This document shows positions 8,735-55,105 of a DNA stretch of 55,535 bases, piece after piece. This stretch comes from an uncultured Verrucomicrobiales bacterium. Its GTDB lineage: Bacteria; Verrucomicrobiota; Verrucomicrobiia; Limisphaerales; Palsa-1400. The stretch lies in the NCBI GenBank assembly GCA_903898185.1, contig CAIUEN010000268.1, positions 1 through 55,535 of the forward strand, written 5' to 3'. The notes below the pieces were generated by a model. The model was not told the origin of the DNA and ran no database searches. It saw nothing but the letters and a program-made list of their open reading frames with translations. Each line of letters opens with the position of its first letter. Position 1 is the stretch's first letter. The position numbers and the translations under genes are program-made.

Positions 8735-9090
8735 GTAACCGGACTTTCGATTTTATGCAGACGAAACCTCATGCCGGAGGCATGAAAGCCTGTAGCCGGT
8801 GGTTGAGCGAAGCGACACCACCGGTTAACGATTCAAAATAAACCGCACCCTGGCAGGGTGACAGCGGTGACAACCTTCCAAACCCATGCCTTCCACACAT
8901 ACCAGCCTGCATTATCATGTGATCTTCGCCACCAAAAACCGCGAACCTCGCCTCGGAATTCAATGGCAGGGCCAGACCAATGTCGCGCGGGGATCCGTTT
9001 CCGGTGGTGTCGCTTCGCTCAACCACCGGCTACAGGCTTTCATGCCTCCGGCATGAGGTTTCGTCTGCATAAAATCGAAAGTCCGGTTAC
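8735..9090. mobile_element. REPtron-like relic: two perfect 90-bp inverted repeats around a truncated IS200/RAYT-type gene
   Basis: 8735-8824 is the exact reverse complement of 9001-9090, checked base by base. Each arm holds two hairpins (catgcc-gga-ggcatg and ccggtggt..accaccgg). The spacer is 176 bp. Confidence 0.85.
8886..9056 (+). pseudogene. IS200/RAYT-like tyrosine transposase, N-terminal remnant
   Basis: The ORF starts MPSTHTSLHYHVIFATKNREP, the hallmark HxH-containing N-terminus of Y1 (IS200/RAYT) transposases. The remaining codons run into the right repeat arm and stop after 56 codons. Confidence 0.6.
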
Positions 9091-9253
9091 TCATTTTGAG
9101 CAACAAAGGGGAAAAATGATGATCTGCCAGCGCACGAAGTTCTCGATTCCCTGCGGAGCCAGAGGCACCGCAACAGTCAGCACAATAATCACTGCACCTC
9201 GATAACGAGGTGCTGGCAGACCAGAGGTTTACCCCACATAATGAGAATTGCTG
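9091..9253 (+). mobile_element. MITE family R2, copy A (long variant, left end truncated)
   Basis: It aligns with copies at 18554, 30556 and 47605. The left terminal repeat is cut exactly where the 90-bp repeat arm ends (9090). The right end is cataatgagaattgctg. Confidence 0.8.
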
Positions 9254-10345: not shown

Positions 10346-10703
<358 letters not shown>

Positions 10704-18553: not shown

Positions 18554-18686
18554 CAGCAATTCTCATTTCGAGCAAGGAAGGAAAAAAACGCTGATCTGCC
18601 GACGCATGAAGTATTCGACTCCCTGCGGAGCCAGAGGCACCGCAACCGGCAGACCAGAGGTCTGCCCCACATAATGAGAATTGCTG
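18554..18686 (+). mobile_element. MITE family R2, copy B (short variant, complete)
   Basis: It has 14-bp terminal inverted repeats, cagcaattctcatt and aatgagaattgctg. The flanking 10-mers are gatgagcggt (18544-18553) and gatgatcggt (18687-18696), 9/10 identical. The core is a double hairpin, gcggagcc-aga-ggcaccgc and ggcagacc-aga-ggtctgcc. Confidence 0.85.
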
Positions 18687-30555: not shown

Positions 30556-30688
30556 CAGCAATTCTCATTTTGAGCAAAGAAGGGAAAAAACGCTGATCTG
30601 CCTGCGCACGGAGTTTCCGACACCCTGCGGAGCCAGAGGCACCGCAACTGGCAGACCAGAGGTCTACCCCACATAATGAGAATTGCTG
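30556..30688 (+). mobile_element. MITE family R2, copy C (short variant, complete)
   Basis: It is 133 bp, like copy B. The flanking 9-mers attgagctc (30547-30555) and attgagcgc (30689-30697) are 8/9 identical. It lies 23 nt beyond the 3' end of tRNA-Asp. Confidence 0.85.
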
Positions 30689-47604: not shown

Positions 47605-47777
47605 AAGCGATTCTCATTATGTGGGGTAGACCTCCGGTCTGCCAGCACCTCGTTATCGAGGTGCAGTGATTAGTTGTGCTGACTGTTGCGGTGCCTCCGG
47701 CTCCGCTGGGAGTCGAACGCTTCGTGCGCAGGCAGATCAGCGTCTTTCCCCTTCCTTGCTCAAAATGAGAATTGCTG
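47605..47777 (-). mobile_element. MITE family R2, copy D (long variant, reverse orientation)
   Basis: Its reverse complement aligns end to end with copy A, including the ~40-nt internal hairpin module. One terminal repeat has 2 substitutions. Confidence 0.8.
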
Positions 47778-47987: not shown

Positions 47988-48224
47988 ATGAAAACGATTC
48001 CCGAGATTGCAAAGGATGCGTTGGAGCTGCCCACCGCTCAGCGCCTGACCTTGGCGCGCATTCTTCTTGATCTGTCCGATGAACCTCAGGAATTCTCGCC
48101 TGAAGTCCAAGCCGCTTGGGATCAAGAGCTTTTGCAACGCATCGAAGAGGTGAAGGCTGGACGCTCCCGGTCCAGCAGTGTTGATGAAGTATTTGCCCGA
48201 TTGGATCATCGATTTTCTAAATGA
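47988..48224 (+). CDS. addiction-module antitoxin component (ParD-like small helical type)
   Basis: 78 aa. ALELPxxQRLxLAxxLLDSL...W..E..RR pattern. It overlaps the toxin gene by 4 nt. Confidence 0.75.
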   Translation: MKTIPEIAKDALELPTAQRLTLARILLDLSDEPQEFSPEVQAAWDQELLQRIEEVKAGRSRSSSVDEVFARLDHRFSK

Positions 48225-48523
48225 AGGTTGAGATTCTTCACGAAGCAGAAGAAGAACTCGACGCCGCTATTGAGCATTATGAATCTGTCCAACCAGGGTT
48301 GGGACTGCGGCTCAAAGAAGAAACGCGCCAGCGGATTCTGTGGATAAAAAACAATGCCACCGTAACACGCTTGTTGCCTAAGGGATATCGGCGGGTGAAC
48401 TTGAAGGTGTTTCCCTATTACATCCCCTACTTCATTTGGAGTGATACAATTTGGATTCTCGCCCTCGCTCATGCTCACAGGCGTCCACAATATTGGATCA
48501 AAAGACGTGCCAATCTTCCCTAA
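48221..48523 (+). CDS. RelE/ParE-family toxin
   Basis: 100 aa. AExELxxAxxxY, FPYxIxY and ILALAHxxRRPxYW are typical of ParE-like toxins. Confidence 0.8.
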   Translation: MKVEILHEAEEELDAAIEHYESVQPGLGLRLKEETRQRILWIKNNATVTRLLPKGYRRVNLKVFPYYIPYFIWSDTIWILALAHAHRRPQYWIKRRANLP

Positions 48524-48578
48524 ATCAAGATTTGAAATCCGAAATCTTGAATTTCAAATCACCTCCATCGTTCTCTCA

Positions 48579-48626
48579 ACTTTCCTATTTTCTGCTTTCT
48601 GCTTTCCCAATTTCTGTTTTCCTTCT
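48579..48626 (+). repeat. CTTTCTG-type heptamer array a
   Basis: ctttcctattttctgctttctgctttcccaatttctgttttccttc. It ends 6 nt before the hicB ATG. Confidence 0.9.
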
Positions 48627-48632
48627 TAAATT

Positions 48633-48884
48633 ATGGTTGCTCAATACATGGATACAGCAATGGAACTGGCGCGTTACGAGATCATCCAAGACGACAATAG
48701 TTACTGGGGAGAGATTCCCGGTCTTCAAGGTGTCTGGGCCAAACACGACACGCTCGCCGGATGCCAGCGCGAACTAAGAGAGGCTTTGAGTGATTGGATA
48801 GGCTTGCGCTTACGATTGGGCCTTCAGATTCCCGAATTGGCTCGCATCAACCTCAATCAAATTGGCACAATTGCCCATGCCTAA
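48633..48884 (+). CDS. hicB: HicB-family antitoxin
   Basis: 83 aa. YxGEIPxLxGVWAxxxTLxxCxxELxEAL pattern of short HicB/UPF0150 proteins. Confidence 0.8.
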   Translation: MVAQYMDTAMELARYEIIQDDNSYWGEIPGLQGVWAKHDTLAGCQRELREALSDWIGLRLRLGLQIPELARINLNQIGTIAHA

Positions 48885-49095
48885 ATTGGCCCCGATTTCG
48901 CGCAGGAAATTCATTCAGAACCTGCGTCAACTTGGATTTCAAGGCCCTTACTCGGGAGGCAAGCACCAGCAAATGATGCGAGGCGATGCTACTCTCATTA
49001 TTCCGAACGAACACGAAGGAGACATCAGTCCAGGTTTCCTCCTTCGGTTGCTCCGGCAAGCTGGCGTTTCCCGAGAAGAATGGCTAAGTCTCTAA
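48877..49095 (+). CDS. hicA: HicA-family mRNA interferase toxin
   Basis: [27 protein letters not shown]. The ATG at 48877 overlaps the hicB stop by 8 nt. Confidence 0.8.
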
Positions 49096-49176
49096 CTTCC
49101 GTTTTCCCCAATTTCTGTTTTCTGCTTTCTGCTTTCCGCTTTCTGCTTTCTGCTTTCCAAATTTCTGCTTTTCTTT
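49096..49176 (+). repeat. CTTTCTG-type heptamer array b (longest tandem run)
   Basis: ttttctg ctttctg ctttccg ctttctg ctttctg ctttcca aatttctg. It ends 2 nt before the rfbB ATG. Confidence 0.92.
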
Positions 49177-49178
49177 TT

Positions 49179-50246
49179 ATGAAAATTCTAATCACCGGCG
49201 GTGCCGGTTTCATCGGCTCAAACCTCGTTCATTGGTGTCTGCGGCACACGGATGCCCAGATCATCAATGTCGATAACCTGACCTACGCGGGCAATCTCAA
49301 TTCGCTGGAGAGCGCCCTGAAGGATCCCCGCCACACGTTTGTCCAAGCGGATATTTGCGACGCCGCTGCCGTGGCGGCCATTTTCACCCAGCATCGCCCC
49401 GATGCGGTGATGCACCTCGCCGCCGAGTCCCATGTGGATCGTTCCATCGACGGCCCGGGCCAGTTCATCCAGACCAACATCATCGGCACCTACAATCTGC
49501 TCGAGTCGGCCCGCAAGCTCTGGCTGCAACGCAAAGAGTCCGATCCAGCCAGCGCGGCGCGGTTTCGGTTTCTGCACGTATCGACCGACGAAGTCTATGG
49601 CTCACTGGGCAACGACGACCCTGCTTTTAGCGAAACGACCCCTTACGATCCGCATTCCCCCTACTCGGCTAGCAAGGCCGCCTCGGATCACCTGGTCAAA
49701 GCGTGGTTTCACACCTACGGTTTTCCGGCGCTGGTGACCAATTGCTCGAACAACTACGGCCCTAATCAATTTCCGGAAAAACTCATCCCGGTCGTCATCA
49801 TCAAAGCGTTGCGCGGCGCGCCAATCCCCGTCTATGGCAAAGGCGAAAACACGCGCGACTGGCTCTATGTCGAGGACCATGCCAGCGCTCTGATGACCGT
49901 GCTGGATAAAGGACGCCTCGGCGAAACCTACAACATCGGCGGAAACAACGAGGTTCAAAACATCGACCTGGTGCGCCGCCTCTGTTCGACTCTCGACGAA
50001 CTGCGTCCCCGTTCCGACGGCAAGAGCTACGCCGACCAGATCACCTTTGTGACCGACCGCCCCGGCCACGACCTCCGCTACGGAATCAACGCCGAAAAAA
50101 TCCGTTCCGAGCTCGGCTGGCAGCCCAAAGAAAGCGCCCGCAGCGGCTTCAAAAAGACCGTCGATTGGTATCTCAATAACACCGCTTGGTGGGAATCCAT
50201 TTTATCAGGCAAATACCAATTGCAAAGATTGGGGACGGGAAAATGA
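49179..50246 (+). CDS. rfbB: dTDP-glucose 4,6-dehydratase
   Basis: It has the Rossmann motif [15 protein letters not shown] and the catalytic YSASKAASD. The start is set at 49179 because the computed ORF extension only reads through the repeat array. Confidence 0.93.
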
Positions 50247-50439
50247 ACCCTTTCTTACAGAAGGTAACGAAGGAAACAAAGGTTTGTGGTTCTAGCACCA
50301 AGAACCATTGCTACAAAGATCGGGGATAAAGCGGGTCAAAGGCGCAGCGATTCTCATTTTGGGAGGAAAGCCGTAATACCCAATATTCAATGGAAGATTC
50401 CCACCTCCGCGCTCTCCGCGCCTCCGCGTGACTGAGGTT

Positions 50440-50695
50440 GAATATCCAATATCGAACAAGGAATTTCCAATAATGAAGTAGAAAAGCGGCCACCGCCAAG
50501 TTCAGTTCCAGTGCAGCAAAGGAGTTTGCGATATCGTTTGCGATACAATAGAAAGAGCAAAACAGCAGGCACGATTGATAATGTTGGAGTGGGGTCACCT
50601 TCCGCGTTCCGTATTCTGCGATTTCAATTGCCAATTCCAAGTTTGATGGCTCCCCACTTCATTATTGGACATTCCTTGTTCGATATTGGATATTC
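50440..50695. repeat. 40-bp inverted repeat pair (1 mismatch) enclosing 176 bp
   Basis: The reverse complement of 50440-50479 (gaatatccaatatcgaacaaggaatttccaataatgaagt) matches 50656-50695 except at one base. A third related unit lies at 50377-50404, and a ctccgcg x3 run at 50405-50428. Confidence 0.88.
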
Positions 50696-50704
50696 TTCCT
50701 CTGC

Positions 50705-51001
50705 ATGCATCTAAAGGATTATAAAGAGGATATGATCCAGCGGTTGAAGGATCCTGAATACGCTGCGGAATACCTTTCCCAGGTTCTGGCGGAAAAAGAC
50801 AGCGCAGCTTTTTTGATTGCCCTCAAAGATGTGGTCGAGGCGGCAGGCGGAATGAGCCAACTGGCTGAGCGCGTGGATATTAAACGTCCGAACCTCTACA
50901 AAACACTCTCAAAAAATGGCAATCCCCGTTTCAACACGCTCCAGGAAATCTTAGGCTCTTTGGGGATGCGCGTTTCGGTCGAGTTAGACAAAGTCGCGTG
51001 A
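50705..51001 (+). CDS. HigA-type addiction-module antidote protein (orphan)
   Basis: 98 aa. PxxAAxYLxxxLxxxDxxxFxxALxDVxxAxGMSQLAxxxxxxRxxLYKxLSxxGNPxFxTLxxxLxxLG is the antidote-protein pattern. There is no intact toxin gene upstream. Confidence 0.8.
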   Translation: MHLKDYKEDMIQRLKDPEYAAEYLSQVLAEKDSAAFLIALKDVVEAAGGMSQLAERVDIKRPNLYKTLSKNGNPRFNTLQEILGSLGMRVSVELDKVA

Positions 51002-51054
51002 TCGGATCTGTAGCGCAAATGAAGTTGTCAAAGTGTTGAACCAAGTTACGCTGA

Positions 51055-51285
51055 ATGAAGACGATTGAACTGATGGCAGTAAACCCTGGGTTGGACGAAC
51101 TGCTGGAACTTGCTCGCAAGGAATGCGGTTTGCGGCTAACCAGGCTCGGCCAGACTGTGGCTGAGGTCATTCCAACAAATATCCAACCGATAAAACGGAT
51201 AACTCCTCTTCACCCCGGAACCTGGCAGGTTGGCGAAGACTTTGATCAGCCTCTGCCCGAAGGCTTTTGGATGGGAAGAGAGTGA
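51055..51285 (+). CDS. VapB-type antitoxin (1)
   Basis: 76 aa. The C-terminal DFDQPLPEGFW tail is like the second antitoxin at 53682. It overlaps the PIN toxin gene. Confidence 0.7.
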   Translation: MKTIELMAVNPGLDELLELARKECGLRLTRLGQTVAEVIPTNIQPIKRITPLHPGTWQVGEDFDQPLPEGFWMGRE

Positions 51286-51668
51286 AATTGCTGATCGACA
51301 CTCATGCCCTTATTTGGTGGGACGAAAACCCCGAACGCCTCGGCTCAGAGGCATTGGCAGCTTGCCTTGATACTGGCAATGAGTTGTGGTTAAGCGTGGC
51401 GAGCGTCTGGGAAATACAGATCAAAATAATGTTGGGACGTCTCGCGTTGTGCAAGCCGCTGAGGCAGTTGATTAGTGATCAGATCAAACAAAATGGAATG
51501 CTGATTTTGCCTGTGAAATTCGAGCACGTTTTGAGGTTGGAATCCCTGCCGGATCGACATAAAAATCCCTTTGACCGTTTGTTGGTGGCCCAAGCCTTGG
51601 AGGAAAATTGTGTGCTGGTAACTCTCGATCCAACTATCGCGCAGTATCCTGTAACCACAATTTGGTAA
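51267..51668 (+). CDS. vapC: PIN-domain toxin VapC (1)
   Basis: It has LLIDTHALIWW, SVASVWEIQIK and HKNPFDRLLVAQA. The likely true start is the GTG at 51282, which overlaps the antitoxin stop (GTGA). Confidence 0.85.
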   Translation: MDGKRVKLLIDTHALIWWDENPERLGSEALAACLDTGNELWLSVASVWEIQIKIMLGRLALCKPLRQLISDQIKQNGMLILPVKFEHVLRLESLPDRHKNPFDRLLVAQALEENCVLVTLDPTIAQYPVTTIW

Positions 51669-51717
51669 CCAGCCCTCCATATAGCTATCCCATTTTCCTG
51701 TCATCGTCCTGCTCTTT

Positions 51718-51836
51718 AAGATTTCTGCTTTTGATTAGACCTTTCCGCTTTTTTATTCCTTGTGAAATTTCTGCTTTCTACTTTCCCAATTTCTGCTTTC
51801 CCTTGGCAGATTTCTACTTTCTGCTTTCTGCTTTCA
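51718..51836 (+). repeat. CTTTCTG-type heptamer array c (overlaps the start of the beta-barrel gene)
   Basis: aatttctg ctttcta ctttccc aatttctg ctttccc ttggcag atttcta ctttctg ctttctg ctttcaa. Confidence 0.9.
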
Positions 51837-53024
51837 ATATCTTCTTCTGTCCGCGCCCAAGAAGCCCTGCGCATGTCCCTCGCCAGCGAAGAAGCCGCCC
51901 AAGCCCGCCACGATGCCTCCCAATTGGGCTACTGCAACATCAAGTTCAGATCCGTCACCGCCCGTGTTCAGGCGTATGCGGGGGTCGAGTACATCGACAA
52001 TGTTACCTACTCCACCACAAAGCCTGAGAGCGACGTTGCCCTCCGCGCTGGCCTCAACATTCAGAGCCTGTGGCCGATCTCCGATCTCAACAGCCTCTAC
52101 CTCTCCACCGGCGCCGGCTACATCAAGTATGCCCAGATCGGTTCAGCGGATTCCCCCTACATCACCCCCAATTCCGGCATCCTGTTCCAGATGTACTCGG
52201 GCGATTTCCTCATCAACCTCCACGACCGATTCTCCCTGATACAAAGCGGCTCGCAGAACTCCACCGTTAATTCCATTTTTGGATATGATCGGCTTCAAAA
52301 CACCTTGGGCGCAAATGTCGATTGGGATCTCAACGACCTGATTCTCTCCGCTCAGTACGATCACGACCTGTTGATGGCCACCCAGCCCGCATACAAATAC
52401 GTCAATCGCAATTCCGATTTGCTCTCCACCCGCGCCATGTACGACTTGAACCGTAGAGTCTCGGTCGGACTGGAGGCCGCCGGCGGATTGACCTACTACG
52501 ACCAACAGCGGTTCCCGAATAATAATTACTACAGCATCGGTGCCGCGAGTGTGGTCAAGTTAAGCCAGTTTCTCAAAGTGCGCCTTTCCGCCGGATGGGC
52601 CGATTACACGTTCGACTCCCCCCCCACCAATTCCAACTCCAACCTCGGCAGCGACCAGAACTCCTATTACGCAAAGGCATCGATCGATCACCAGTTAACC
52701 CGATTCATCTTCCATTCCCTCACGCTCCAGCACAACTTGGGCTTGGGAGAATGGTATGCCGTAGGCAACCTCGATACAGCAAGCTACTCAGTGACTTGGA
52801 CAGCCGATGCCCGCCTGACCGTCTCGGGATCTTTCTACTACTCCACCGGAGATATATACAACCCAGCGAAAGAAAGCCTCACCTGGTTTGGTCCCAGACT
52901 GGAAGTCCAGTATCATCTCGGCCCCAAGCTGTTCACTTCACTCACATACCAATACTCCCAATCGGAATCCGCAACGACTTACACTCAGAACCGAATCGGG
53001 CTCAACCTGACCTACACATTCTGA
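51762..53024 (+). CDS. outer-membrane beta-barrel protein (family not recognised)
   Basis: 420 aa with alternating-polarity strands rich in Y/G/N/S and the C-terminal signature LNLTYTF (terminal Phe). The only start giving a signal peptide is the GTG at 51762 (MKFLLSTFPISAFPWQISTFCFLLSISSSVRA/QEA). Confidence 0.7.
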   Translation: MKFLLSTFPISAFPWQISTFCFLLSISSSVRAQEALRMSLASEEAAQARHDASQLGYCNIKFRSVTARVQAYAGVEYIDNVTYSTTKPESDVALRAGLNIQSLWPISDLNSLYLSTGAGYIKYAQIGSADSPYITPNSGILFQMYSGDFLINLHDRFSLIQSGSQNSTVNSIFGYDRLQNTLGANVDWDLNDLILSAQYDHDLLMATQPAYKYVNRNSDLLSTRAMYDLNRRVSVGLEAAGGLTYYDQQRFPNNNYYSIGAASVVKLSQFLKVRLSAGWADYTFDSPPTNSNSNLGSDQNSYYAKASIDHQLTRFIFHSLTLQHNLGLGEWYAVGNLDTASYSVTWTADARLTVSGSFYYSTGDIYNPAKESLTWFGPRLEVQYHLGPKLFTSLTYQYSQSESATTYTQNRIGLNLTYTF

Positions 53025-53091
53025 CAATTCTCAGCCAGCATACAGGATTAACAAGATTTACAGGACTGATTTGCCCTCTCCCATTCTCCTT

Positions 53092-53150
53092 CAGTCTTCT
53101 GCTTCTTGTTTTGGCTCTCTGCTTTCTGCTTTCCAAATTTCTGCTTTCAA
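53092..53150 (+). repeat. CTTTCTG-type heptamer array d
   Basis: cttctgcttcttgttttggctctctgctttctgctttccaaatttctgctttcaa, between the convergent beta-barrel and vapC(2) genes. Confidence 0.88.
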
Positions 53151-53225
53151 TTGGAGAACTTGGGAGAAATGGTATGGGACTTTCAGAACCCGAAGTATCT
53201 CCAGCAATGGCTCGATAGAACAAAA

Positions 53226-53254
53226 ACTGAAATAGAAAAAACTGAAAACTGAAA
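53226..53254 (-). repeat. TTTCAGT heptamer mini-array
   Basis: The plus strand reads actgaaa at 53226, 53241 and 53248 (the last two in tandem). On the minus strand this is TTTCAGT, just after the vapC(2) stop. Confidence 0.75.
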
Positions 53255-53298
53255 TCAGTTCCGTAGGGACGCAATATTTGTGGAACTGAGATCCAAAA

Positions 53299-53685
53299 TC
53301 ACCACAACACATTCGCCGGATATTTTGAAAATTCGGGATCGCGGGTCACAATGATCATTCCATCAGCCATCGCTTGCGCGATCAACAGCCGGTCAAATGG
53401 GTCGCGATGATGAAATGGGAGAGATGCCAGTTGAATGAGCTGCCCACAGGAAATAGGGAGGAGTTCAAAACCGTTAACTTCAAGTTGATGGGGGAAAACT
53501 TCACCAAACGGACGTGGCAACTTCAATTTCTCCAGGCTTATCTTAATCGCGATTTCCCAAAGGCTGACCGCACTGACAAACTTATCATTTGCCGGATCTT
53601 CGATGCTCTGGCGTGATGCTTTACTCAATTGCGGATTGTTGCCGATGAACCAAAGCAGCGCGTGGGTGTCCAGCAACAACTTCAT
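53299..53685 (-). CDS. vapC: PIN-domain toxin VapC (2)
   Basis: It has MKLLLDTHALLWF, SAVSLWEIAIK and HHRDPFDRLLIAQA. It is a clear paralog of the toxin at 51267. Confidence 0.88.
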   Translation of the reverse strand: MKLLLDTHALLWFIGNNPQLSKASRQSIEDPANDKFVSAVSLWEIAIKISLEKLKLPRPFGEVFPHQLEVNGFELLPISCGQLIQLASLPFHHRDPFDRLLIAQAMADGMIIVTRDPEFSKYPANVLW

Positions 53686-53912
53686 TTCATGTATTCGTTA
53701 AAATCTTCAAGCGGCGCGTCAAAATCCGGTGCCAGCCAGATAGTTCCCGGCAAACTACCAGCCTGTGCGTGTCGGTGCTTATGAGAAATTGCGGCGGAAA
53801 GTTTGGCCTTTGGCTCGCCATTCTGCGTGATGGTGAACTCCTCGCCGCCCGCCACTTGTTTGAGCAGATCTGCGAGCGAAACCTGAGCCTTTTCAAGAGC
53901 AACCGTTTGCAT
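53682..53912 (-). CDS. VapB-type antitoxin (2)
   Basis: 76 aa with a Phd/YefM-like N-terminus (VSLADLLKQVAGGEEFTITQNGEP) and tail DFDAPLEDF. It overlaps vapC by 4 nt. Confidence 0.8.
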   Translation of the reverse strand: MQTVALEKAQVSLADLLKQVAGGEEFTITQNGEPKAKLSAAISHKHRHAQAGSLPGTIWLAPDFDAPLEDFNEYMK

Positions 53913-53967
53913 AACAGTAGAATACTAACTTACCTTCCCATCGAAGGCTAATCCTTTTGCATCTTTG

Positions 53968-53998
53968 GCGCTCAGATTTCTGCTTTCTGCTTTCGTTT
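53968..53998 (+). repeat. CTTTCTG-type heptamer array e
   Basis: gcgctcagatttctgctttctgctttcgtttt. It abuts the rpn ATG at 54000. The first 20 nt are identical to 55042-55061. Confidence 0.9.
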
Positions 53999-53999
53999 T

Positions 54000-55007
54000 A
54001 TGAATCCTTCGACCGATTTTGATGGCGCATGGAAAGAGGCGTTGGAACAATTCTTCCGCCCCTTTCTGGAATTCTGCTTTCCGGACATCGCCGCCCACGT
54101 CGATTGGTCCAAGGGATTTGATTTTCTGGATAAGGAACTCCAGAAGGTTGTCCGCGACGCCGAGATGGGAACATTGCGCGTTGATAAACTGGTTCAGGTT
54201 TATCGGTTGGATGGAGCCGAAGATTGGCTACTGATTCATGTGGAAGTGCAAAGTCAGACCGACAATGACTTGCCTTCACGGATGTACCAATATCATCACC
54301 GCATAGCCGACCGTTATAAAAAAGCGGTGGTCAGTCTGGCGGTATTGGCAGATGAACACGAAACATGGCGGCCAAAGGTGTATGAGGAATCGAATTTTGG
54401 GTGTTCCTTGCGGTTTGAATATCTGGTCTGCAAACTTCTGGATTATAACAAAGTTCACGGGGCTTTGGATGCCAGTTTAAATCCCATTGCAATCGTTGTT
54501 GCCGCACACTTGGCGGCTCAGGCAACAAGCAGCCAACCGAACAATCGTTACAACCTCAAGCGGCAATTGGCTCGCAGACTCCACGAAAAAGACCACACCA
54601 AACAGCAAGTGATGGATTTGCTTCGACTCATAGACTGGGTCATGACATTACCAAGGGAATTGGAGTTGAAATTTGAGAAAGACATGCTAGCATACGAGAA
54701 AGAACATAATATGCCATTCATAACAAGTTTCGAAAGAATTGCAACTAAAAGGGGCCTTAAGCAAGGCCGTCAGCAAGGCATTAAAAAGGGACGCCAGGAA
54801 GGTCGGCAAGAAGGCATCCAGAAGGGCCTTCAAGCAGGACAGACCTCCCTGATTGTTCGGATGCTCAAACGCCGTTGGGGCACGCTGGATCCGGAGTTGG
54901 AAATCCGCCTTTCAAGCTTGTCCTTGGCGCAATTGGAGAGCTTGGGGGAAACGCTCTTGGAGTTTCGCGCTCCATCTGATCTGCAGCGGTGGCTGGACGA
55001 GGCGTAG
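54000..55007 (+). CDS. Rpn-family recombination-promoting nuclease / YhgA-like putative transposase with DUF4351-like C-terminus
   Basis: 335 aa. It has N-terminal DxxWKEALEQFF, the PD-(D/E)XK core LLIHVEVQSQ and YQYHHRI. The C-terminal segment LIVRMLKRRWGTLDPELEIRLSSLSLAQLESLGETLL is typical of DUF4351. Confidence 0.8.
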   Translation: MNPSTDFDGAWKEALEQFFRPFLEFCFPDIAAHVDWSKGFDFLDKELQKVVRDAEMGTLRVDKLVQVYRLDGAEDWLLIHVEVQSQTDNDLPSRMYQYHHRIADRYKKAVVSLAVLADEHETWRPKVYEESNFGCSLRFEYLVCKLLDYNKVHGALDASLNPIAIVVAAHLAAQATSSQPNNRYNLKRQLARRLHEKDHTKQQVMDLLRLIDWVMTLPRELELKFEKDMLAYEKEHNMPFITSFERIATKRGLKQGRQQGIKKGRQEGRQEGIQKGLQAGQTSLIVRMLKRRWGTLDPELEIRLSSLSLAQLESLGETLLEFRAPSDLQRWLDEA

Positions 55008-55041
55008 GGAAAAGCAGAAATTATTTCAGTCAGCTTTTTTT

Positions 55042-55105
55042 GCGCTCAGATTTCTGCTTTCCCAATTTCTGCTTTTGGTTTTGCAATTTCTGCTTTGGTT
55101 TCTGG
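55042..55105 (+). repeat. CTTTCTG-type heptamer array f
   Basis: gcgctcagatttctgctttcccaatttctgcttttggttttgcaatttctgctttggtttctgg. It is preceded by an inverted unit aaaagcagaaat at 55010-55021. Confidence 0.88.

Follow-up and report, generated by a model that had tools for sequence, protein, structure and literature searches.

The window analysed here is a stretch of 55,535 nt (positions 1–55,535 of contig CAIUEN010000268.1, assembly GCA_903898185.1) from an uncultured Verrucomicrobiales bacterium, and the features in question are arrays of TTTCTGC-type heptamers that lie among the genes of a toxin–antitoxin island beyond 48.5 kb. We found that these arrays are local copies of a dispersed repeat family of the Planctomycetes–Verrucomicrobia–Chlamydiae (PVC) superphylum. 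The first 48 kb encode core functions (FabH, PlsX, Mla, SMC, PriA, ThrRS, TRAP transporter, RecJ, SecDF, YajC, and Tgt), and Tgt assigns the window to Verrucomicrobiota, near Pedosphaera and Limisphaerales metagenome-assembled genomes (MAGs), to which it is 79–85% identical. In five relatives, the island and the arrays are both absent beside tgt, in about 95 kb around this gene. The gene labels of a preliminary description of the island were checked by a Pfam profile search of the window's open reading frames (ORFs); most were backed (Unstab_antitox, UPF0150/HicB, HicA, RfbB, HigA-like, two PIN proteins, Phd-like, and DUF4351), but 'parE' and the insertion sequence matched no profile among the window ORFs scanned.

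The preliminary description had listed six heptamer arrays and nothing comparable in the first 48 kb. All six proved real and lie where it placed them, between 48.5 and 55.1 kb (Table 1), as indicated by a check of the sequence, by Tandem Repeats Finder, and by a scan with TTTCTGCTTTC. At one mismatch or fewer, TTTCTGCTTTC has 28 matches in the window against 1.84 ± 1.39 in dinucleotide shuffles (maximum 7); 25 of the 28 belong to the six arrays, every one on the plus strand, and the sole match outside the island is a one-mismatch 11-mer at 10696 on the minus strand. Tandem Repeats Finder reported period-7 arrays with a higher-order period of 21–22 nt only in the 48.5–55.1 kb part of the window, period 7 being detected at arrays 1, 2, 3, 4, and 5. 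A looser unit, TTT[CT][ATC][GA][CTG] in at least three copies, again confined the arrays to the DNA beyond 48.5 kb, and no array occurs in the first 48 kb despite about 20 intergenic gaps longer than 80 nt there.

The uniform plus-strand polarity described earlier holds for the six listed arrays, but the island also contains a minus-strand variant array of the TTTCAGT type and an inverted partial module. The latter (55008–55024) pairs with 55049–55064 at the start of array 6 in a predicted hairpin of −21.4 kcal/mol. TTTCAGC runs, related to the TTTCAGT array, accompany modules in other genomes (e.g., L270, L231, and L269).

Arrays had also been thought to bound every gene module of the island, which is not the case: 6 of the 9 junctions carry one, and there is none at tgt|parD, rfbB|higA, or higA|vapB1. 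The window arrays stand before the first genes of transcription units, namely hicB, rfbB, the outer-membrane protein (OMP) gene, and the rpn-like gene (as well as an rpn-like paralogue in the related contig L201), and no array lies inside a toxin–antitoxin operon. The shared polarity is best explained as co-orientation with the downstream gene, and not as the polarity of an integron-like cassette array.

A dispersed 33-nt repeat family

The canonical module, (A)TTTCTGCTTTCTGCTTTCCCAATTTCTGCTTTT, is 33–34 nt long: two TTTCTGC heptamers are followed by TTTCCCAA, one more heptamer, and a short stretch of T, and additional heptamers make some copies longer. In an alignment of 88 copies, conservation falls off sharply at both edges of the module, and there is none beyond either edge. 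The CCMAA spacer is preceded by two heptamers in 183 copies, by one in 56, and by three or more in 8, and this strong peak at two indicates a defined unit rather than a free-running microsatellite. Contig ends show no excess of modules (19 observed against 16.6 expected).

The composite motif CTTTCCMAATTTCTGYTTT was scanned against 185,579 species genomes. The matches listed come mostly from Verrucomicrobiota MAGs, often from many contigs per genome. A 32-mer of the module is present at 0–2 mismatches in most MAGs labelled Verrucomicrobiota (one Akkermansiaceae), Lentisphaeria, and Victivallales and in one 'planctomycete' bin, and at 4–5 mismatches in two loci (one with a Victivallales and one with a Terriglobia label); it is identical across MAGs labelled Verrucomicrobiae, Akkermansiaceae, Lentisphaeria, and Victivallales. 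In all other phyla examined, the 19-mer match was due to chance, with at least seven mismatches to the 32-mer. A 25-mer of the module occurs in more than 120 metagenome contigs and in only one viral contig. The arrays are not a trait of the toxin–antitoxin island, as had been supposed, since the family spans the PVC superphylum and also stands before housekeeping and polysaccharide genes.

The island gave no match to Rfam at gathering thresholds, and full-text literature searches on the repeat sequence and on heptanucleotide repeats in Verrucomicrobia gave none in the library searched; the 33-nt family appears to be undescribed. The short tandemly repeated repetitive sequences (STRR) of heterocystous cyanobacteria, proposed earlier as the closest analogue, are likewise dispersed intergenic tandem heptanucleotides of one lineage whose function is unclear. 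Their units are CCCCAGT, TTGGTCA, and CAACAGT (STRR1–3). The likeness goes no further than the heptamer periodicity: the unit here is TTTCTGC, the host is verrucomicrobial, and the full module is confined to PVC-labelled MAGs, where, unlike STRR, it forms a fixed 33-nt composite with a preference for two heptamers, a bias towards gene starts, and identity across lineages.

The plain 18-mer (TTTCTGC)x2.5 matches many phyla, including Thermoanaerobaculia and Gemmatimonadaceae loci with multiple similarly placed arrays. Soil MAGs from outside the PVC group (L038, Thermoanaerobaculia; L046/L110, Gemmatimonadaceae; L077, Acidobacteria) hold several TTTCTGC-like arrays per 8 kb, placed before gene starts or after stops and without the CCCAA spacer. 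These arrays may be related to the module or convergent with it.

Gene starts, coding use, and strain variation

In other genomes, modules lie 2–18 nt before the starts of PepS, PfkB, a low-molecular-weight protein tyrosine phosphatase (LMW-PTP), AroB, a short-chain dehydrogenase/reductase, and TsaB, the start codons being beyond doubt, as the N-termini conform to family norms. Near-identical modules stand upstream of non-homologous genes. Among 24 identified genes directly behind modules, about 11 are envelope-polysaccharide genes: RfbB, two nucleotidyltransferases, GT2, GT4, GT9, a WecA-type Glycos_transf_4 protein, an exosortase, a Wzt-like ABC ATPase, LMW-PTP, and the BBP2 OMP. Two other lineages (L251 and L270) also have toxin–antitoxin cassettes flanked by co-oriented arrays. 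Several divergent gene pairs are separated by mirror-image module pairs; in the bin-117 lineage these pairs have conserved spacers and fall into two subfamilies. Apart from the modules, these divergent genes have only about 40 nt of GC-rich spacer between them.

The orientation of the module relative to genes was assessed in two ways. Naive ORFs of at least 100 aa starting within 50 nt of a module end numbered 41 at the T-rich 3′ end and 14 at the opposite end. A naive ORF test on a mixed-phylum set gave 60 against 51, with no clear bias. We attribute the lack of a clear bias in the mixed-phylum and metagenome sets to the frequency of antisense ORFs in GC-rich DNA and to the absence of stops from the arrays. 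We therefore replaced these tests with a trained codon log-odds score computed on flanking sequence only for 277 arrays, counting gene ends within 40 nt of an array end. A sense gene start was found at the 3′ end of 50 arrays, a divergent gene start at the 5′ end of 24, and a sense gene stop at the 5′ end of 8. The 3′ end of the module is the gene-contacting side, mostly with gene starts, although the preference is not absolute.

At orthologous sites the module is not conserved. In the bin-117 lineage a mirrored pair ends 8 nt before the ATG of PepS, whereas in PepS orthologues at 83–86% identity the module is missing and the gene upstream is another one (mazG). No multi-unit array is present in two unbiased 21-kb loci that surround PepS orthologues, and one of these loci holds a single 11-mer match. 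It follows that the module comes and goes; in the PepS case this coincides with a break in gene order. For rfbB, the closest relative in the set of genome representatives is only 70% identical and the remaining relatives are in other phyla, so this gene is itself accessory and a comparison of orthologues is uninformative.

Array 3 has become coding sequence. The 383-aa product given by gene callers for the OMP has homologues in PF10082 (BBP2_2 beta-barrel porin), all of which possess a signal peptide ending ...RAQE(A/S)LRMSLASEE. Gene callers start this gene at ATG 51873 and lose the signal peptide; since the conserved RAQEALRMSLASEE is encoded upstream of this codon, the OMP must start at GTG 51762. 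Array 3 does span this GTG, as noted earlier, and moreover encodes the hydrophobic core of the signal peptide (KFLLSTFPISAFPWQISTFCFLLS) according to the alignment of homologues. A homologue at 54% identity has an ordinary, non-repeat signal peptide. Because 7 and 3 share no factor, (TTTCTGC)n gives the hydrophobic heptapeptide FLLSAFC in all three frames, and it is this stop-free coding that underlies both the co-option of array 3 and false N-terminal extensions in public gene calls. The absence of stops had been claimed for the arrays in general and applies to the pure heptamer; inflated calls do result, such as a 388-aa rfbB ORF and PepS proteins called at 380–408 aa where 369 aa is correct. 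The module thus explains mis-called starts of both kinds, the OMP losing its signal peptide and other proteins gaining false hydrophobic N-termini.

Island variants from independent assemblies, 94–99.8% identical, allowed the arrays to be compared between strains. L399, L400, and L402 match the window. In L201, hicBA is absent and rfbB stands behind a hybrid array composed of the left part of array 1 and the last unit of array 2, the junction being an in-register crossover over about 15 nt of homology. In the same variant, the right end of a parE deletion coincides with the 5′ edge of array 1, and hicB-like and hicA-like genes stand in place of vapC1, the PIN gene, the replaced sequence ending at 51747, at the 5′ edge of the array 3 core. 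The window and L201 diverge at array 6, which is shorter in L201, where a second rpn-like paralogue has its ATG 5 nt further on. Other differences between the two lie away from arrays: a 173-nt insertion resembling a miniature inverted-repeat transposable element (MITE), a change in parD, and 220 nt inside vapC2, an internal deletion that L201 shares with L202. Overall, 5 of the 13 structural endpoints between the window and L201 lie in or at arrays, which cover about 6% of the region (P ~ 0.001, our binomial estimate). The arrays mark points of loss or exchange of small gene cassettes, and their suggested role as recombination joints is supported by the loss of hicBA, the replacement of vapC1, and the divergence at array 6.

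Unit numbers vary as well. In L401, array 1 is shorter by one 22-nt unit and array 2 is about 50 nt shorter, being reduced to a single module; the 'parDE' pair is cut down to remnants in both L201 and L401. At the intergenic pair of pepS, loci L534–L538 differ from L224 by one heptamer more in one arm and one fewer in the other, the PepS proteins being 99% identical. These data agree with the earlier suggestion that the arrays are prone to slippage. Arrays 3, 4, and 5 have the same unit count in the window and in L201, strains that differ by 2–3% nearby, and array 4 shows only point changes in L201 and L202. Taken as a whole, the arrays are neither spread uniformly through core DNA, nor randomly oriented, nor invariant in unit number, and the accessory regions appear as DNA reshuffled through short direct repeats without an integrase.

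It should be noted that in L401 (JGI 3300081887, positions 91–465) rplT, encoding ribosomal protein L20, replaces tgt upstream of the parD remnant, so that the island there adjoins a different core gene.

Readings of the module

To our knowledge, cis-acting signals in Verrucomicrobiota and Lentisphaerota are poorly characterised, and a sharply bounded gene-front 33-mer that is identical between distant lineages and enriched before surface-polysaccharide genes is a concrete candidate for a promoter, a leader, or an antiterminator site. We tentatively favour, with a little less than even confidence, a portable gene-front: the module would be a promoter and/or a structure-free leader lacking a Shine–Dalgarno (SD) sequence for the gene on its 3′ side, and also a recombination substrate. 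Lying on the coding strand immediately ahead of a transcription unit, it would supply the expression signals next to the start. One possibility is a promoter that starts transcripts near the 3′ edge of the module, another a purine-poor SD-less leader unable to fold, leaving the start codon open in an organism that seldom uses SD sequences. The many co-oriented copies in accessory DNA provide short homologies for slippage and unequal crossover, and such events between copies would delete, fuse, or exchange the intervening cassettes. A stop-free copy can be absorbed into an ORF, as array 3 has been in the signal peptide of the OMP. Promoter or leader activity, and the way in which new copies arise, are inferred.

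A promoter within the module is consistent with the size of the conserved block, which is about that of a promoter, with the mirrored pairs, where little more than the modules separates divergent genes, and with the comparison of strains, in which the DNA further upstream varies and only the array stays constant ahead of the ATG of rfbB and of the OMP gene. The predicted folding energy of the region from −40 to +20 is −2.5 to −5.2 kcal/mol for four array genes and −9.3 ± 3.7 kcal/mol on average for 25 other window genes. Three arrays had been described as closing just before ATGs without an SD sequence; the closeness stands (2–11 nt for hicB, rfbB, and the rpn-like gene), but the lack of an SD sequence is not special to array genes and was rejected as such, a GGAG-type motif being found upstream of only about 5 of about 45 core genes of the window and SD scarcity being genome-wide.

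A number of observations speak against the gene-front. The unstructured leader follows automatically from the pyrimidine-only composition and is no proof of selection. The module contains no sigma-70-like −35/−10 hexamers, and a scan of the island for sigma-70 and terminator consensus sequences yielded chance-level sites only. In the metagenome set, the naive ORF test gave 24 against 22, i.e., no bias. The codon log-odds test gave an orientation bias of about 2:1 to 3:1, which is moderate; 35 of the 277 arrays have the stop of a convergent gene at their 3′ end, and most lie more than 40 nt from any confident gene start. In the window itself, array 4, the minus-strand variant array, and array 6 have no downstream gene. 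Finally, perfect identity of the 32-mer at phylum-level distances is unusual for a promoter and could reflect horizontal spread of selfish DNA.

The gene-front has parallels in putative mobile promoters ('promoter reuse in prokaryotes'), near-identical upstream regions found before unrelated genes and in some cases across taxa (PMC3575422). The pattern of upstream identity is the same, but the module is shorter, internally repetitive, and length-polymorphic, and its promoter activity is only putative. In behaviour the arrays appear, by analogy, most like mobile promoters and the Correia elements of Neisseria (CREE), and in placement they recall JUMPStart, to which we return below. CREE are MITEs of about 100–155 bp with inverted-repeat ends and TA target duplication. 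They are short, dispersed elements near gene starts that vary between strains and from which promoters can arise at one end or at both (PMC2649163). The mirrored pairs of modules that separate divergent genes resemble them, whereas each window module stands singly in direct orientation, consists of tandem heptamers, and is purine-poor, with no target duplication seen. Within the window an inverted partner exists only at 55008–55064, the mirrored pairs show no duplication, and the strain differences at arrays consist of unit-number changes and crossovers rather than whole-element insertions, unlike those of a MITE.

Unlikely, but serious, is the alternative of a selfish or neutral dispersed repeat (REP-, MITE-, or microsatellite-like) that is propagated by duplication, gene conversion, or transposition and accumulates in DNA that tolerates it (accessory and intergenic), with the closeness to start codons, the role at junctions, and the signal peptide as by-products. 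The lack of conservation at orthologous sites fits this explanation, as do the clustering in variable regions (the 48 kb of core genes and the DNA around tgt in the five relatives being free of modules), the orphan arrays 4 and 6 without a downstream gene, and other MITE-like repeats in the same genome. The mirrored pairs with conserved spacers and their two subfamilies recall doublets of the REPIN or Correia type. REP and REPIN elements, however, are built on a palindromic unit of 20–40 nt with a GTAG or CGTC tag, whereas the module consensus is non-palindromic and without a tag; mirrored pairs occur in the bin-117 lineage, while the window copies are single and direct. Neither a terminal duplication nor a cognate transposase was seen in the contigs analysed, an identical 32-mer across Verrucomicrobiae, Akkermansiaceae, Lentisphaeria, and Victivallales MAGs is not expected of drifting repeats, and the fixed preference for two heptamers, the unequal contact of the two ends with genes, and the enrichment of polysaccharide genes point to constraint. 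Even if the module is only selfish DNA, it would constitute a new repeat family of use in annotation and in the typing of strains.

We consider rather unlikely a broader scheme in which the module would be a PVC-wide expression signal read by a conserved factor, either as an unusual promoter or as a loading site for a UpxY-like NusG protein. It would be carried along by moving accessory genes (surface-polysaccharide, toxin–antitoxin, and nuclease genes), shuffled into cassette arrays by module-to-module crossover without an integron, and would also serve as a ready-made signal peptide.

The narrower proposal, that the module is a JUMPStart/ops-like loading site for an UpxY/RfaH-like NusG paralogue, acting through the non-template strand or the nascent RNA, seems improbable to us. 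The factor would carry RNA polymerase (in the RfaH type, also the ribosome) through acquired SD-less operons, e.g., those for polysaccharides. The ops consensus is GGCGGTAG, within a 39-bp element, and the module has no sequence similarity to it. JUMPStart/ops is, like the module, a short conserved element just upstream of many polysaccharide gene starts, and operons of this type are an established setting for NusG paralogues and their ops-type sites (PMC6391919). The share of envelope-polysaccharide genes behind modules agrees with this, and the genome encodes a stand-alone NusG paralogue of 162 aa in the window, for which UpxY is the best family match and the housekeeping NusG model reaches only 1.6e-6. 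On the other hand, the paralogue scores below the family cut-off and has no homologue in about 1.3 Mb of array-bearing loci, and modules, which lie nearer the ATG than ops (2–18 nt), also precede many single genes, toxin–antitoxin cassettes, and housekeeping genes. The paralogue gene adjoins a tRNA gene and a PhoH/PIN gene, not a polysaccharide locus.

Phase variation is a quite improbable explanation. In contingency loci of this kind, 7-nt slippage would alter promoter or leader geometry and, in array 3, which lies between the start codon and the mature protein, would shift the frame from the GTG to the mature OMP, 7 not being a multiple of 3, and so switch surface structures. A known parallel is the 7-bp promoter repeat of hmw1A/hmw2A in Haemophilus influenzae, a pyrimidine-rich heptamer (ATCTTTC) upstream of a surface-protein gene whose unit number modulates expression. 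Unit number does differ between close strains (arrays 1 and 2, the pepS pair), and the targets include OMP and polysaccharide genes. The hmw tracts, however, are long and restricted to two loci of one species, whereas the module tracts are short, typically two perfect units and far below classical contingency loci, and form a family over many genomes and loci; arrays 3, 4, and 5 are constant in unit count, and cytoplasmic housekeeping and toxin–antitoxin genes carry modules too.

A dedicated cassette-recombination system, with the arrays as att-like sites of an integron-like recombinase or as targets of the adjacent Rpn-type nuclease, is very improbable. Like integron cassette arrays, the island has co-oriented repeats between small, toxin–antitoxin-rich cassettes, here and in the two other lineages, with the next start codon very near; presence/absence junctions of cassettes lie inside arrays, and there are two rpn-like genes in the island. 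An attC site, however, is an imperfect inverted repeat (R″/L″–L′/R′) with a GTTRRRY core, while the arrays are direct, pyrimidine-only, and unable to self-pair, have no such core, and belong to the gene on the 3′ side rather than to the cassette on the 5′ side as in integrons. A Pfam scan of 41 window ORFs, which took in neither small ORFs nor sequence past the end of the window, found no integrase domain. The hicBA junction is a simple crossover such as slippage or homologous recombination would give, mirrored modules between divergent housekeeping genes do not fit, and homologues of the island's toxin–antitoxin and rpn-like proteins do not recur in other array-bearing loci.

Least probable of all are operator arrays for a heptad-binding global regulator, such as a ribbon-helix-helix protein polymerising on tandem 7-bp sites (the omega repressor of plasmid pSM19035 is one), because, for all the tandem 7-bp units, direct and mirrored, immediately upstream of starts, the higher-order period equal to two helical turns, and the strong sequence conservation, no candidate regulator is linked to the arrays, the targets have mixed functions, and the sites show no conservation between orthologues.

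Coordinates and further features of the window

The positions of the arrays and of the neighbouring genes are collected in Table 1.

Table 1. Arrays, genes, and related features of the window.
Feature	Position	Strand	Description
NusG paralogue, 162 aa	30014–30502	−	Best NCBIfam match UpxY antiterminator (E 1e-21, below cut-off), then LoaP, RfaH
'parDE' pair	47988–48523	+	Unstab_antitox antitoxin 47988–48224, 100-aa partner 48221–48523; no array upstream
Array 1	48575–48626	+	Near-canonical module: two heptamers, CCCAA, one heptamer; hicB ATG at 48633, a few nt on
hicB / hicA	48633–48884 / 48877–49095	+	UPF0150 / HicA; cassette between arrays 1 and 2
Array 2	49096–49178	+	Expanded: six heptamers between CCCAA and CCAAA; from 1 nt after hicA stop up to rfbB ATG (49179)
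rfbB	49179–50246	+	dTDP-glucose 4,6-dehydratase family (Pfam)
HigA-like antidote, 76-aa protein, PIN toxin	50705–51001, 51055–51285, 51267–51668	+	Pfam
Array 3	51718–51836	+	Degenerate 5′ part 51718–51760; canonical core 51765–51835 inside ORF from GTG 51762
Beta-barrel OMP	51762–53024	+	BBP2_2 (PF10082) family, 420 aa from GTG 51762
Array 4	53092–53150	+	Canonical module downstream of OMP stop; only a 27-codon ORF behind it, no convincing gene
Minus-strand variant array (TTTCAGT type)	53220–53254	−	Directly after vapC2 stop; convergent with array 4 across 70 nt
PIN toxin / Phd/DUF2281 antitoxin	53299–53685 / 53682–53912	−	Pfam
Array 5	53968–53998	+	Half module (two heptamers); 5 nt before ATG of rpn-like gene
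rpn-like gene	54000–55007	+	DUF4351 protein, weak match to Rpn nuclease/transposase family
Inverted partial module	55008–55024	−	Directly after rpn-like stop
Array 6	55042–55105	+	Module and degenerate units, then different DNA (compared with L201) and a transposase-like ORF

Two small features of the island lie close to arrays. Just past the stop of the 100-aa toxin-like gene there is a palindrome with a 12-bp stem (48529–48560; GATTTGAAAT...ATTTCAAATC), which could be a terminator or an operator. The 27-codon ORF between array 4 and the minus-strand variant array (53170–53253, plus strand; MVWDFQNPKYLQQWLDRTKTEIEKTEN) has a GGAG-like motif upstream and may be a remnant or a small gene.

The DNA that separates rfbB from the HigA-like gene contains inverted repeats, each of about 45 nt (50434–50479 and 50655–50695), with about 175 nt enclosed by them, and the independent contigs L399, L400, L403, and L404 end or begin at these repeats. 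A nearby fragment, 50251–50281, is found inverted beside array 3 in L201.

A dispersed repeat of about 165 nt is present in four copies that are 88–95% identical: 9090–9252, 18554–18685, and 30556–30687 on the minus strand and 47606–47769 on the plus strand. The copy beside tgt is present in the window and in L399/L400 and absent in L201, which suggests a MITE-like insertion polymorphism.

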